Shown: positions 34,715 through 39,640 of the stretch, piece by piece
How positions within the stretch are numbered: position 1 is the stretch's first letter
Layout: each line of letters begins with the position of its first letter
Translations under genes and position numbers: made by a program
Notes under the pieces: generated by a model
The model's input: only the letters and a program-made list of their open reading frames with translations
Told to the model about the DNA's origin: nothing
Database searches by the model: none
DNA from: Escherichia coli
GTDB taxonomy: Bacteria; Pseudomonadota; Gammaproteobacteria; Enterobacterales; Enterobacteriaceae
Assembly: GCF_044324875.1 (NCBI RefSeq)
Contig: NZ_CP172185.1
Strand: one strand, 5' to 3'
Length of the DNA stretch: 64,000 nucleotides

Positions 34715-35377
34715 ATGGCTTATCGCGACCAACCTTTAGGTGAACTGGCGCTCTCTATTCCTCGCGCTTCGGCTCTGTTTCGTAAATATGATATGGATTA
34801 CTGCTGCGGCGGTAAGCAAACGCTGGCGCGTGCGGCGGCACGTAAAGAGCTGGATGTTGACGTCATTGAAGCTGAACTGGCAAAGCTTGCTGAACAACCG
34901 ATTGAGAAAGACTGGCGCAGCGCCCCGCTGGCTGAAATCATCGACCATATCATCGTGCGCTACCACGATCGCCACCGCGAGCAGCTGCCGGAGCTGATCC
35001 TGCAAGCGACTAAAGTCGAGCGCGTTCACGCCGACAAACCGAGCGTGCCAAAAGGGCTGACAAAATACCTGACCATGCTGCATGAAGAGCTTTCCAGCCA
35101 CATGATGAAAGAAGAGCAGATCCTCTTCCCGATGATCAAACAAGGCATGGGCAGCCAGGCGATGGGGCCAATCAGCGTAATGGAAAGCGAGCACGATGAA
35201 GCGGGCGAACTGCTGGAAGTGATCAAACACACTACCAATAACGTCACACCGCCGCCAGAAGCCTGCACCACCTGGAAAGCGATGTATAACGGCATTAATG
35301 AACTGATTGATGACCTGATGGAGCACATCAGCCTGGAAAATAATGTGCTGTTCCCACGCGCGCTGGCGGGTGAGTGA
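34715..35377 (+). CDS. ytfE: Iron-sulfur cluster repair di-iron protein (RIC / ScdA family)
   Basis: 220-aa [44 protein letters not shown]... with hemerythrin-like HxxxE motifs. Confidence 0.96.
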
Positions 35378-35385
35378 TTTGTTCG

Positions 35386-35418
35386 ATCAACGATCCTGAC
35401 ATGGGCAGGATCGTTGAT
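35386..35418. terminator. Bidirectional hairpin between convergent ytfE and downstream accessory gene (13-bp perfect stem ATCAACGATCCTG / CAGGATCGTTGAT, 7-nt loop)
   Basis: Inverted repeat read directly from sequence 9 bp after ytfE stop and 4 bp before the stop of ORF 35422..36906. Confidence 0.6.
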
Positions 35419-35421
35419 TAT

Positions 35422-36906
35422 TCAGTCATTCAGTGGAAATAATTCATTGTTGTAACTGGTGTACTCACCTTCAACGGTAAGCAAACTGCCGTTTTTATCA
35501 AGATGCGCCGCATCGAGTTGTCGAGTCTCATTACGCCGCTTCGCATCACGTACCAGTCCATCGCCTACGTAATAAATATAGTGGTCATCATGAGCAAAGG
35601 TATCTGATAATTGACCATTGGCGTATTTAAACCACGTCCATTGGCCTTTCAGTTCAAAATGCTCAACCGTGTCTTCATCAATAAAATACGTATAGCGATC
35701 GTCATGTGCTAAATAATTTAATGGTGTGCCATCGGGGCTTTTATACCACTGCCATTGCCCATTAATATCAAAAATAGTCACATCATCGCTCGCAATGAAA
35801 TAAACTTTATCCCCTACAATATTAACACCTTCCTGTAATTCTTGTTGCGGGTCTGGTAAATGAATGACCGACAGCGTTTTTTCGACCGCAGAAACATACT
35901 TCACCAGATAGAGCGAATCTTTATATTGCGCCACATTCTCCGTCAGCGGGCGAAAATATTCCGGATCAACATCAGGAATAGTCGCAACCCGGCAGTCATT
36001 AGCACGCCTGGAAGCATCACGCGTCAACCATGTTACTTTATCCCGCTGCAGGTCAAACGTACTCCGACAATTTTTACCGAACGCATAACGTTTCTCCCCG
36101 TCTTTATCGCGATAAATTAGCAGTGAACCGGCTATCCAGCGCACAATATGAAAGGTATCCGGATCGGCGTTGATGGCATCTCCATTCACAAAGACCTGTG
36201 ATTTAGTCCGCCAGATTGTATCCCAGGGTCCCGGATTACTTTTGCTTTGGCAGCTATTGGGGGAAAATAAAATAATTCGTCGGTCCCAGGATTTAACGCC
36301 AAGAATAGAATACCCTTGCGCACTGCCCAACCAGTGCCCCTGAAAGTAAATATTGTGACGATCTTTCAGCACATCCGCGGAATCACCTGAACCGCCGACT
36401 TGTTGCAACGAATCCATATCGACCTGCTTTTCGTCGCGATTATCATCCGTGCGTTCACCATCAAAATAGAGACTATCTTTATCGGCGGCAAAACGCCCCC
36501 ACGCGCGGAATGTTGCAACATCAACTTTCGGTGTTCCCGGCGGGTTCTGGACTATTTTCCCTGCCCATAAAATATGGCGGCCATCGGTTAACCAGTCGAA
36601 ACGCCAGCCGCCATTTGACCGATAGCCAGAGAAGGGAGCCACCCGCACAAAATCATTATTGATATCATCAGGTGAATCGTATTCACCATCAGTGCCGTTG
36701 GGTACGCGGCGAAGTTGTTTGAACTTTACCTGCGGCAAATGAATATCCGGAAAATCGATACCGTAACCGTCACTATCTTCAACGATATATTTTGTGCCTT
36801 GCCCCCACGGCTGGTAGTAAAACGCAGCATAAGGCACGCCGGAGCAGGCTATCGAAGCGGTTGAAAATAAAGCCAGTGCGAGACAAACGGGTTTAATTGG
36901 CAACAT
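35422..36906 (-). CDS. Secreted hypothetical protein with DKNYY-like repeats (paralog A), 494 aa
   Basis: Long ORF with AGGA RBS 9 nt upstream of ATG 36904-36906; N-terminal signal peptide MLPIKPVCLALALFSTASIAC; repeated D-K-x-x-Y-F/Y motifs (ADKDSLYFDG, KDRHNIYFQG, RDKDGEKRYAFG, YKDSLYLVKY, GDKVYFIASDD) and two C-terminal ~34-aa repeats (GQWQWYK...AHDDRYTYF / GQWTWFK...AHDDHYIYY). Family assignment is by motif eye-match only. Confidence 0.8.
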   Translation of the reverse strand: MLPIKPVCLALALFSTASIACSGVPYAAFYYQPWGQGTKYIVEDSDGYGIDFPDIHLPQVKFKQLRRVPNGTDGEYDSPDDINNDFVRVAPFSGYRSNGGWRFDWLTDGRHILWAGKIVQNPPGTPKVDVATFRAWGRFAADKDSLYFDGERTDDNRDEKQVDMDSLQQVGGSGDSADVLKDRHNIYFQGHWLGSAQGYSILGVKSWDRRIILFSPNSCQSKSNPGPWDTIWRTKSQVFVNGDAINADPDTFHIVRWIAGSLLIYRDKDGEKRYAFGKNCRSTFDLQRDKVTWLTRDASRRANDCRVATIPDVDPEYFRPLTENVAQYKDSLYLVKYVSAVEKTLSVIHLPDPQQELQEGVNIVGDKVYFIASDDVTIFDINGQWQWYKSPDGTPLNYLAHDDRYTYFIDEDTVEHFELKGQWTWFKYANGQLSDTFAHDDHYIYYVGDGLVRDAKRRNETRQLDAAHLDKNGSLLTVEGEYTSYNNELFPLND

Positions 36907-36939
36907 AGCATCATCCTGAAGCTGTTAGCGTGTAAGAGG

Positions 36940-38103
36940 TTATTTAAATAAGGGTTTCAGACCGCTCGGGGGTTGCTTCACCGTAGACCATTCTGCTGAA
37001 ATGGGGTTGTAACGCAGCCATTCAGTTTGCTCGTAGTGTTTTCCGTCGATTGTGGTTAATCCACTAAGTTCGTGACTGTAGAGTTGCCCGTCTGTAGTGA
37101 TATACATGTAGCCAGTTACCATGCTTTCCCTATCTAATAATTCAAAAACATCCTCTGGCTTGGGTGTTATCAGTTCACCTTCACCTAATGCATTGGTTTT
37201 AACCTTATAGAATTGATCTTTGTAATAGCCTACCGACCCGGTAAGTAAGGTAAAATATTCCGGATCAACTCCTTTAAGCGTTTCATAAACACAATCACTG
37301 CCCGCAGGCGTCGCTTCTTGTTTGAGCCTGGACACATTCTTCAAACCGATATTAAATAACGCACAACTGTGACCAATATCTTCCAACGTATAGTCATGCT
37401 CGCCGCTTTTATCGCGATAAACTAACCGTTCGCCAGGCATCCAGCGGATTATCTGAAAGGTTTTGCGATCGGCGGGCAGCGGCTTGCCATTAACAATCAC
37501 CTGCGAATTTGTCATTACAACAAATTGCAGGGATGAATCATGCCGCAGGATTTGAAACCCGTCAGCGCTGCCCAACCAGTGCCCCTTATGCCAAAGACTA
37601 TTTTTATCACGCAGTAAATTCCAGATGTCCGTCTCTTCAAGCGTTGACATATCCACCTGCTTATCACCGCTATTATCATCGGTACGCTGGCCGTCAAAAT
37701 AGATACTGCGTTTATCAGCAGCGAAAGCGCCGAATGCCTTAAAACTGGCGGCATCGACATTAGGTTCACCGGATGGATTTTTCAGGACTTTGCCTGCCCA
37801 AAGGACAGAACGTCCATCGGTGAGCCAGGTATGCTGGCAATCCCCCTCGTCATCACAGTCGAACTTATCGGGATTAAAATCGGAGAGCAGCCGGGTTTCT
37901 TGTTTATTGGCTAAATTGGCAATGCGCCAGAGGCGGGAAAAATTAACGTCTGGTAATTCGGAGAGGATCTCATCTTCTTTTCCCTTCTGTTCGGCAACGT
38001 AAACCGTGCCTTTTTCATGCTGGCGGTAATAAAAATCCGCGCCCCAGGAAGGTGAAATGGAGAGAGGTAATGCGGCGATTAATAACCAACTGCGCTTAAC
38101 CAT
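36940..38103 (-). CDS. Secreted hypothetical protein with DKNYY-like repeats (paralog B), ~387 aa
   Basis: ORF track 36940..38331; I place the start at ATG 38101-38103 where a signal peptide begins (MVKRSWLLIAALPLSISPSWGA), avoiding overlap with cycA; colinear with paralog A (WLTDGRSVLWAGKVLKNPSGEPNVDAASFKAFGAFAADKRSIYFDGQRTDDNSGDKQVDM vs WLTDGRHILWAGKIVQNPPGTPKVDVATFRAWGRFAADKDSLYFDGERTDDNRDEKQVDM). Confidence 0.75.
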   Translation of the reverse strand: MVKRSWLLIAALPLSISPSWGADFYYRQHEKGTVYVAEQKGKEDEILSELPDVNFSRLWRIANLANKQETRLLSDFNPDKFDCDDEGDCQHTWLTDGRSVLWAGKVLKNPSGEPNVDAASFKAFGAFAADKRSIYFDGQRTDDNSGDKQVDMSTLEETDIWNLLRDKNSLWHKGHWLGSADGFQILRHDSSLQFVVMTNSQVIVNGKPLPADRKTFQIIRWMPGERLVYRDKSGEHDYTLEDIGHSCALFNIGLKNVSRLKQEATPAGSDCVYETLKGVDPEYFTLLTGSVGYYKDQFYKVKTNALGEGELITPKPEDVFELLDRESMVTGYMYITTDGQLYSHELSGLTTIDGKHYEQTEWLRYNPISAEWSTVKQPPSGLKPLFK

Positions 38104-38185
38104 AGTGAACTCTGCAACGAGTGGCAAAGATTCACGGTAAGCTCGCGCCTGAGGGCTGTCTATGATGGTAGATATTTTTAAGAAT

Positions 38186-38217
38186 ATATAAAGACAAAGG
38201 CACCCGCAGGTGCCTTT
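38186..38217 (-). terminator. cycA terminator hairpin (9-bp stem AAAGGCACC / GGTGCCTTT)
   Basis: Inverted repeat 20-40 bp downstream of cycA stop on minus strand followed by T-rich tract (TTTGTCTTTATATATTCTT). Confidence 0.55.
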
Positions 38218-38236
38218 CAGAGCTATAAACGCAGCA

Positions 38237-39640
38237 TTACTTCGCCATGCGTTTTTTACCAATAAACAACCAGCCCAGCCCCAGAGCGATAAACCACAGC
38301 GGGGTAACCAGCAGCGCCTGGCGGGTATCATCTTCCAGTGTCAGCAGCACGACCACGAACACAAAGAATGCCATACATACCCAGCACATCAGCTTGCCGA
38401 GCGGCATCTTGTAGATCGACTTATCATGCAGGTGTGGACGCTGTTTGCGGTACACCAGGTACGAGCAAAGGATAATCGTCCAGACGAACATAAACAGAAT
38501 CGCGGAAACGGTTGTAATCATCGTGAACGCGCCAATCACGCTGGGATTCACATACAACATCACCACGCCGCCGAGCAGACAGATACAAGAGAAGGTCAGC
38601 CCTTTCGCGGGTACTGCGCGCTTAGAGAGTTTAGCGAACGCTTTCGGTGCCACACCTTCCTGCGCCAGACCAAACAGCATACGGCTGGTAGAGAAGACAC
38701 CGCTGTTAGCGGAAGACGCCGCAGAGGTCAGCACCACAAAGTTGATCACGCTGGCAGCCGCAGGCAAACCTACCAACACAAACAGCTCAACGAACGGGCT
38801 TTTCTCCGGGACTACCGAACTCCACGGCGTCACGGACATAATCACAATCAACGCGAAGACGTAGAACATAATGATACGGATCGGAATGGAGTTAATCGCG
38901 CGTGGCAGTGATTTCTCTGGATCTTTGGTTTCCGCAGCTGTTGTACCTACCAGCTCAATCCCCACGAAAGCGAAAACCGCTATCTGGAATCCGGCAAAGA
39001 AGCCACTTAAACCTTTCGGGAACCAGCCGCCGTCATTCCACAAATGCGCGAATGACGCTTCTACACCGGTCGGTGACTGAAAGTGCATCGCCACCATGAC
39101 CAGGCCGACGACTATCAGCGACACAATGGCGACGATTTTGATCATCGCAAACCAGAACTCCATCTCACCGAACATTTTCACGGTGGCGAGGTTGAGCGTC
39201 AGCAGCAGCACTATCACCGCCAGCGAGGCGACCCAGTCGGAGAGATCGGGGAACCAGAACTGAGCATAAGCCGTGATCGCCACCACGTCTGCCATACCGG
39301 TTACAACCCAGCAGAACCAGTAAGTCCAGCCGGTGAAATATCCTGCCCACGGCCCGAGTAAATCGGAAGCGAAGTCACTAAAAGATTTGTATTCCAGATT
39401 CGAAAGCAGCAATTCCCCCATTGCCCGCATCACGAAAAAGAGCATAAAACCAATGATCATATAAACAAAAATGATCGACGGCCCGGCAAGGCTAATCGTT
39501 TTGCCGGACCCCATAAACAACCCCGTACCAATGGCACCGCCAATGGCAATAAGCTGAATATGTCGGTTTGTGAGATTGCGCCGTAGCGACTGTTCAGCCG
39601 GAGCCTGATCATCGGCAACGACTTTTACCTGATCTACCAT
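38237..39640 (-). CDS. cycA: D-serine/D-alanine/glycine:H+ symporter (APC family)
   Basis: 467-aa ORF MVDQVKVVADDQAPAEQSLRRNLTNRHIQLIAIGGAIGTGLFMGSG... amino-acid permease signature. Confidence 0.96.
   Translation of the reverse strand: MVDQVKVVADDQAPAEQSLRRNLTNRHIQLIAIGGAIGTGLFMGSGKTISLAGPSIIFVYMIIGFMLFFVMRAMGELLLSNLEYKSFSDFASDLLGPWAGYFTGWTYWFCWVVTGMADVVAITAYAQFWFPDLSDWVASLAVIVLLLTLNLATVKMFGEMEFWFAMIKIVAIVSLIVVGLVMVAMHFQSPTGVEASFAHLWNDGGWFPKGLSGFFAGFQIAVFAFVGIELVGTTAAETKDPEKSLPRAINSIPIRIIMFYVFALIVIMSVTPWSSVVPEKSPFVELFVLVGLPAAASVINFVVLTSAASSANSGVFSTSRMLFGLAQEGVAPKAFAKLSKRAVPAKGLTFSCICLLGGVVMLYVNPSVIGAFTMITTVSAILFMFVWTIILCSYLVYRKQRPHLHDKSIYKMPLGKLMCWVCMAFFVFVVVLLTLEDDTRQALLVTPLWFIALGLGWLFIGKKRMAK

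Follow-up and report, generated by a model that had tools for sequence, protein, structure and literature searches.

A tandem pair of exported DKNYY-like proteins between cycA and ytfE of Escherichia coli, a possible binding or scaffold module of the cell envelope

The stretch of Escherichia coli DNA analysed here, 64,000 nucleotides of contig NZ_CP172185.1 (RefSeq assembly GCF_044324875.1) and hereafter the window, carries between ytfE and cycA two adjacent genes of the same strand, which we call A and B. Both were located where an earlier sequence-only reading of the window had placed them, and the 33-bp spacer with an AGGA ribosome-binding site that it had described between them was found exactly. 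The coordinates of the genes, and of the features discussed below, are collected in Table 1. The open reading frame (ORF) containing A is open from 36940 to 38331, and the ATG at 38103 was taken as the start of the gene, this being the start used by RefSeq and by all orthologues.

Table 1. Genes and sequence features of the ytfE-cycA interval (positions in the window)
Feature	Position	Strand	Remarks
ytfE	34715-35377	+	left neighbour of the interval; encodes ytfE/RIC
Perfect 13-bp inverted repeat	35386..35418	.	between the convergent stops of ytfE and B; likely bidirectional terminator
Gene B	35422..36906	-	494 amino acids; paralogue of A with lipobox, predicted outer-membrane lipoprotein; RefSeq WP_001586586.1 'hypothetical protein'
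Variable C-terminal part of B	35422..35826	-	residues ~361-494; extra DKNYY-like hairpin units
Conserved block in B	36439..36492	-	FAADKDSLYFDGERTDDN, residues 139-156; same block as in A
Signal peptide and lipobox Cys21 of B	36844..36906	-	by pattern match
A-B spacer	36907..36939	-	exactly 33 bp; AGGA ribosome-binding site 8 bases before the ATG of B
Gene A	36940..38103	-	387 amino acids; exported soluble-type DKNYY-like beta-repeat protein; RefSeq WP_000240846.1 'DKNYY domain-containing protein'
Variable C-terminal part of A	36940..37356	-	residues ~250-387; from sliding-window identity and dN/dS
Conserved block in A	37672..37725	-	FAADKRSIYFDGQRTDDN, residues 127-144; most conserved block of the family, invariant or near-invariant columns; candidate functional site
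Signal peptide of A	38041..38103	-	MVKRSWLLIAALPLSISPSWG, cleavage before ADFYY; signal-peptidase-I type, from the translation
Upstream region of A	38104..38195	-	putative own promoter and 5' untranslated region; promoter not pinpointed
Intrinsic terminator of cycA	38196..38217	-	AAAGGCACCTGCGGGTGCCTTT followed by a T-run; strong, directly 3' of the cycA stop
cycA	38237-39640	-	right neighbour of the interval

The similarity of the two proteins, previously read as paralogy from shared colinear blocks, is far above chance. BLASTP aligns A and B with 35% identity over 380 amino acids (E 2e-65), the block FAADK-S-YFDG-RTDDN is found in both, and they fall into sister clades with 99% bootstrap support. 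A 30-nucleotide stretch encoding GHWLGSA-G is 87% identical between B (36312-36341) and A (37557-37586), and may represent a patch retained, or gene-converted, between the paralogues.

Sec-type leaders had also been ascribed to both proteins, and the N-terminal translations bear this out at the level of prediction. The leader type seen in A recurs in all members of the A clade and of the T2 clade (T1 and T2 being the relatives encoded at a second locus, described below). B fits a PROSITE-type lipobox, {DERK}(6)-[LIVMFWSTAG](2)-[LIVMFYSTAGCQ]-[AGS]-C, at residues 11-21 (LALFSTASIAC), which A does not, and the lipobox Cys is conserved in every B-clade and T1-clade member. The leader of B also has a Lys at position 5, in the n-region, and a Ser at position +2, the latter predicting Lol-dependent sorting to the outer membrane. 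A pair of Cys residues, C247/C271 in A and C280/C305 in B, is invariant in ten relatives, consistent with disulfide formation beyond the cytoplasm.

Both proteins are predicted to be all-beta, the AlphaFold models having a predicted local distance difference test (pLDDT) score of 84.6 and a predicted template modelling (pTM) score of 0.76 for A, and 83.3 and 0.75, respectively, for B. A test for a closed beta-propeller gave no global structural match to a solved propeller, and sequence searches of the PDB yielded nothing significant with either single sequences or profiles, the profile search having no match below E 0.5. Searches of NCBIfam, PADLOC and PHROGs gave no match for A or B, no catalytic family signature was seen in either product and no functional literature was found for them; the earlier statement that they have no characterised function therefore stands.

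The only family found was Pfam DKNYY (PF13644), the one whose repeats A and B had been said to resemble. For the individual proteins the match is weak, that of A alone reaching 20.7 bits (i-E 6.9e-4) and that of B alone, at 16.0 bits (i-E 0.019), not being significant. At the level of the family it is solid: 11 of 51 relatives match PF13644 at E<=1e-3 (best 4.5e-22) and, since B is tied to A at the E value given above, there is good support for regarding both as divergent DKNYY homologues. In A there are two copies of the strict motif D[KR]xx[hydrophobic][YFWH] and in B three, against 0.15 and 0.29 occurrences expected from shuffled sequences (P 0.008 and 0.002, respectively), and looser DKNYY-like units are visible in the alignment of A, B and their relatives. 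The top 50 Foldseek matches in AFDB50 were DKNYY-family proteins, 'lipoproteins' or uncharacterised exported proteins, all from Enterobacterales with the exception of a Dyadobacter DKNYY-domain protein (E 1.6e-9). In common with PF13644, the two proteins have A/V-D-x-x-T/S-F ahead of a recurring D-K/R-x-x-h-Y/F hairpin motif, signals for export at the N-terminus and a predicted all-beta structure. The A/B branch differs in being very divergent, enterobacterial and without an NCBIfam model, as well as in its paired lipoprotein/soluble modules and its specific RTDDN block. A and B are new, divergent members of a known family to which Pfam assigns no function that could be transferred, A already being named after it in RefSeq.

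Conservation along the two sequences is uneven, the blocks listed in Table 1 marking one extreme and the C-terminal parts the other. Over residues 1-240 the window A is ~90% identical to other Escherichia alleles, while over residues ~270-360 the figure is 46-58%, with synonymous sites saturated. A tblastn comparison of A with Escherichia albertii NBRC 107761 gives 91% for residues 1-222 and 69% for residues 219-387. Over residues ~390-480 of B the two E. coli alleles do not differ (synonymous divergence, dS, ~0) and identity to E. albertii is ~47%, and the number of hairpin units in the C-terminus of B differs between genera. The occurrence of saturated dS beside low dS points to recombinational exchange of divergent C-terminal cassettes, not to simple positive selection.

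The short spacer between the genes, with its ribosome-binding site, implies one transcript for A and B. As the source of that transcript the sequence-only reading had offered either cycA or a promoter at 38104-38195. Of these, read-through from cycA is unlikely since a strong terminator (38217..38196 in the direction of transcription) insulates the pair, and a promoter of its own is suggested by conservation across Escherichia species: ~100 bp 5' of A are near-invariant in an alignment of two E. coli alleles, two remnant-type E. coli, E. albertii and Escherichia whittamii. A sigma-70 scan 5' of A found no credible promoter, formal searches for sigma-E or Rcs sites not having been made, and an Rfam search of the region gave no match. 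The pair looks like a transcription unit of its own, A first and then B, rather than an extension of cycA. An insertion of ~135 bp, resembling a repetitive extragenic palindrome or bacterial interspersed mosaic element (REP/BIME), separates cycA from the conserved upstream region in E. albertii, E. whittamii and E. coli HS (L012:4545-4680, L016 and L014); this insertion (alignment columns 5-165) is not present in the window, in the second E. coli allele or in E166.

The wider family is small, with 57 cluster representatives at E<=1e-3 among 1.84 billion proteins and, in a second search, 43 clusters among 5.8 billion. Its members come in pairs. Nearly every intact locus examined holds a tightly linked module of one Cys/lipobox-type and one signal-peptidase-I-type (soluble) member, and modules of this composition were seen in Escherichia, Pseudocitrobacter, Leminorella, Klebsiella spallanzanii, Atlantibacter and Citrobacter. 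The spacers within intact modules range from -4 to +33 bp, and wider gaps (45 and 61 bp) occur solely between successive modules in one locus (L024). The order seen in the window, soluble A and then lipoprotein-type B, is found at the cycA/ytfE site in Escherichia and in another genomic context in Pseudocitrobacter. At a second site, between lptM (yifL) and cyaY, lipoprotein-type T1 is followed by soluble T2 in Escherichia, Salmonella, Citrobacter, K. spallanzanii, Atlantibacter and Pseudocitrobacter; there Phytobacter has a T1::T2 fusion and Kosakonia remnants only. Leminorella carries a lipoprotein-then-soluble pair in a further genomic context, K. spallanzanii has T1-T2 and A-B-like modules side by side, and in Atlantibacter hermannii (L021) the lipoprotein-type gene was found alone. 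In many Enterobacteriaceae the lptM-cyaY site has one or two T1/T2 modules (in E. coli, L005:2296-7894 and L004:5103-7887), further loci being L008, L010 and L021-L029. In-frame T1::T2 fusions of 590-695 amino acids are common, several loci having a fusion or a truncated T2. The most distant relatives (P0074 and P0057) lie on contigs under 3 kb, which offer no informative context.

T1 and T2 resemble A and B in several respects: they belong to the same family at 30-40% identity, they combine one Cys-type and one soluble-type member, tightly linked or with a 4-bp overlap, and they are prone to decay. They differ in that the lipoprotein-type gene comes first, in that module duplication can produce up to four genes, and in their position 5' of cyaY on the same strand. 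They also form a separate clade (99% bootstrap), and are equally uncharacterised. The neighbour-joining tree has the form ((T1,T2),(A,B)), again with 99% bootstrap support, from which A and B descend from a tandem duplication, as had been proposed. That proposal had implied a younger event, however: separate A and B orthologues are present in Pseudocitrobacter and K. spallanzanii, so that the duplication predates the split of these lineages from Escherichia. The same topology implies that the composition of one anchored and one soluble member was reached, or kept, independently in two lineages.

When 100,044 species genomes were scanned, all confirmed loci but one came from Enterobacterales. 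The exception (L027, JAIJJM010000270.1, labelled 'MAG: Collinsella sp.') is a 4-kb contig bearing an E. coli-like DUF3304 gene and a T1/T2 array. Its DUF3304 is 95% identical, and its T1 and T2 match the second module (T3/T4) of L005 at near self-match scores; the contig is almost certainly a mis-binned enterobacterial one. An orphan DUF3304 gene also stands beside the T1/T2 array in some E. coli (L005:8266-8820, compare L027:263-814), with no Tle1 effector nearby; its match to the Tli1a family is weak (E 1.9e-4) and far below the curated cut-off.

The distribution of A and B was counted in 5,426 complete E. coli genomes. The whole pair is present in 270 (~5%), in 182 of them at an identity to the window of at least 99% and in the other 88 as the second allele, at ~88%. 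A further 357 (~7%) are matched, at 90-95% identity, by just the first 430 nucleotides of A. This remnant of A is annotated as a pseudogene in strain HS, where ~120 bp from the 3' end of B survive beside ytfE; the interior of the pair is replaced in HS-type genomes by an unrelated ORF of 355 amino acids (L014:2830-3897 in HS, L002:1825-2892, L015:2830-3897; WP_001345317.1, WP_001765266.1), which is without an export signal and has no match in Pfam, NCBIfam, PADLOC or PHROGs. The remaining genomes (~88%) have no A/B sequence at the ytfE-cycA locus. The short ytfE-cycA spacer that had been described for K-12 measures 44 bp in all three K-12-type genomes spot-checked (L003, O157:H7 PA20 and strain 268.2; loci L003, L036 and L037), which lack the pair. 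In strain NMBU-W13E19 (NZ_CP043406.1, 2748800-2752999) an IS5 element is inserted in an otherwise 100% identical pair.

The state of the site is accompanied by the form of the neighbouring CycA. Every checked genome with the island or its remnant has a CycA of 467 residues ending ...GKKRMAK, and the three checked empty-site genomes have one of 470 residues ending ...GKKRAAELRK (window 38237-38260, the 3' end of cycA, compared with L003:1623-1655). In Salmonella and Enterobacter CycA ends ...KKRMAGMR, to which the island-type KKRMAK is closer than the K-12 KKRAAELRK. The 65 bp found solely in K-12-type genomes are without a match in the island, and they contain a hairpin similar to part of the REP-like spacer of Salmonella. 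The likeness of the hairpin and that of the CycA C-terminus point in opposite ways on the polarity of the empty site, which may be either a clean deletion or an old empty allele.

We propose, with a probability of roughly 55%, that A and B constitute a non-enzymatic binding or scaffold pair of the envelope, encoded by a self-contained two-gene operon of exported, all-beta DKNYY-hairpin proteins. B would be anchored in the outer membrane, in keeping with its Ser at +2, A would be free in the periplasm, and the two would cooperate in the cell envelope. Both proteins would function, or make contacts, through the face formed by FAADK..YFDG.RTDDN, and which variable partner is bound would depend on the variable C-termini. 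Several points weigh against this proposal. Cooperation of A with B is suggested by linkage, conserved module composition and fusions alone, and no ligand can be named. The lipid modification of B is predicted from its N-terminus, and the T1 clade lies outside the strict PROSITE lipobox. Many modules are decayed (T2 is frameshifted in CFT073 and often truncated elsewhere, and in ~357 E. coli A survives as a pseudogene), which speaks for dispensability, and some of the T1::T2 fusions may be mere decay products. The ratio of non-synonymous to synonymous divergence (dN/dS) relative to E. albertii is 0.17-0.25 for A and B and 0.01-0.05 for the flanking genes, indicating purifying but relaxed selection; values near 0.2 give no direct sign of positive selection, and the C-terminal divergence could reflect relaxed constraint together with recombination rather than the switching of specificity.

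Among other explanations, A and B might be orphan immunity or defence proteins that neutralise the periplasm-acting toxins of competitors, such as Tle/Tae-type effectors of type VI secretion systems (T6SS), colicins or toxins of contact-dependent inhibition (CDI), their C-termini tracking toxin variants and the tandem paralogues forming an array of the 'acquired interbacterial defence' (AID) type. There are real likenesses to orphan T6SS immunity arrays (Tli1/DUF3304, Bacteroides AID clusters): both proteins are exported, one being of lipoprotein type as are many T6SS immunity proteins, divergent paralogues stand in tandem arrays at lptM-cyaY, and presence is strain-variable, with divergent allelic C-terminal cassettes. 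DUF3304 is moreover a Tle1-immunity domain (PMC13133936), so that the orphan gene at the sister locus (L005, L027), with its weak Tli1a-family match, also fits. That neighbour is, however, confined to the other locus and to some strains. Neither an effector nor a VgrG, PAAR, Rhs or CDI gene adjoins any of the ~20 loci inspected, there is no recombinase, the proteins (387-500 amino acids) are much larger than most immunity proteins, and the strict composition of one lipoprotein and one soluble member is foreign to immunity arrays. A dN/dS of ~0.2 argues against the idea as well. No NCBIfam or Pfam immunity family matches A or B, nor does PADLOC, a library covering anti-phage systems only. On balance we consider an immunity role unlikely. 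Surface exposure of B, alone or together with A, as an adhesin or antigen whose C-termini reflect immune or phage pressure strikes us as very unlikely. Variable C-terminal cassettes on a conserved core and a patchy distribution among strains from many hosts would suit it, as would, very weakly, the DKNYY genes found elsewhere beside cell-wall-anchored proteins (in Parvimonas micra, for example); but no autotransporter, usher or secretion partner lies near the loci inspected, most lipoproteins of Enterobacteriaceae face the periplasm, and no similarity to known adhesin folds was seen. One long shot is that the A/B and T1/T2 modules of Enterobacteriaceae represent a class of two-component system, so far unrecognised, for recognition or defence at the envelope: a protein anchored in the outer membrane and a soluble beta-repeat protein would jointly bind foreign molecules of a variable kind, for instance toxins active in the periplasm, bacteriocins or phage proteins, with specificity drawn from the recombining C-terminal cassettes.

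A further explanation concerns origin: the pair would be an islet acquired recently, and horizontally, by this strain, with low GC as the footprint of a foreign donor. The lower GC noticed by eye in the earlier reading is real, at 46.2% for A and 46.3% for B compared with 52.6-56.4% in five neighbouring genes, and at third codon positions (GC3) 0.44-0.47 compared with 0.55-0.65; the pair (46.3%) lies at the 8.6th percentile of the window, whose median is 51.6%. By itself this is no demonstration of recent transfer. Also in line with an islet, ~88% of complete E. coli genomes lack the pair, Pseudocitrobacter and Leminorella have their orthologous or related pairs in other genomic contexts, and cycA and ytfE are adjacent, 110 bp apart, in Salmonella houtenae. 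Yet E. albertii and E. whittamii have the pair in the same arrangement, cycA-A-B-ytfE, at the same site and in the same orientation, the conserved upstream region included, and a comparison of the window with E. albertii gives a dS of 0.66 for A and for B alike, of the same order as in the flanks (0.49 for cycA, 0.28 for ytfE). As had been stated before, no integrase, tRNA or insertion sequence (IS) flanks the pair: a tRNA search found none in 28-46 kb of the window, no integrase or IS is among the genes annotated across the stretch in an identical E. coli genome, and no meaningful flanking direct repeats were found. In tblastn searches of plasmid and phage records the sole matches were records labelled as plasmids, of 1.0-4.9 Mb, and a Salmonella whole-genome contig; the former are too large for ordinary plasmids, so that there is no genuine plasmid or phage copy of A or B among them. 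These four records (H71-H73 in PLSDB, chromosome-sized, and H74, AFYI01000004.1, in a phage collection) are database mislabels that could mislead inferences of mobility. Finally, HS-type genomes keep decayed ends of both genes, a sign of loss and not of gain, and repeated loss thus explains much of the patchiness. The sequence-only reading had spoken of an insertion; a recent or strain-specific one is very unlikely, as the pair is at least as old at this site as the genus Escherichia, and most E. coli have since lost it or keep it in degraded form. It was likely inserted long ago in the ancestor of Escherichia, once that lineage had parted from Salmonella.

To return to the proposed envelope binding or scaffold pair, LolA and LolB offer a loose analogy. 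They are likewise a soluble periplasmic protein and an outer-membrane lipoprotein of one fold, a resemblance that bears on the way in which the pair might work and from which no membership is claimed. They share no sequence or fold similarity with A and B; Gram-negative bacteria universally have them and cannot do without them, and their genes are not adjacent, while A and B are accessory. Beta-propeller envelope lipoproteins such as BamB were also listed among the closest systems. Should the pair prove to bind a defined envelope or foreign ligand, this would be the first function for the DKNYY family. A and B are among the few E. coli envelope proteins to have confident predicted structures and yet no solved homologue, characterised relative or literature. 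What had seemed an odd insertion is now a testable unit, an accessory operon as old as the genus and repeatedly lost, with a fixed lipoprotein and soluble composition and swapped C-terminal cassettes, and its sister module lies beside cyaY in many Enterobacteriaceae, including Salmonella. The result is at the level of tidy annotation; the logic of the modules and the variation of the cassettes are useful and testable, and would not surprise a specialist.

Both Escherichia loci of the family abut genes connected with iron-sulphur clusters, ytfE/RIC (34715-35377) in the window and cyaY/frataxin (L005:1928-2248) at the second site. Considered as a functional clue, this adjacency is probably a coincidence, since the modules of Pseudocitrobacter and Leminorella have other, unrelated neighbours. 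A role of the family in iron efflux was likewise considered and rejected. Overexpression of stm3944, a gene next to cyaY, has been cited as lowering free iron (review PMC8264917). In Salmonella Infantis SARB27 (L035) the ORF directly 5' of cyaY, at L035:8899-9288, encodes a hydrophobic protein of 129 amino acids with no similarity to the DKNYY-like family, and is probably STM3944; the iron lead therefore does not apply to the family, whose member at this locus is the long T1::T2 fusion ORF on the other side of that gene from cyaY.

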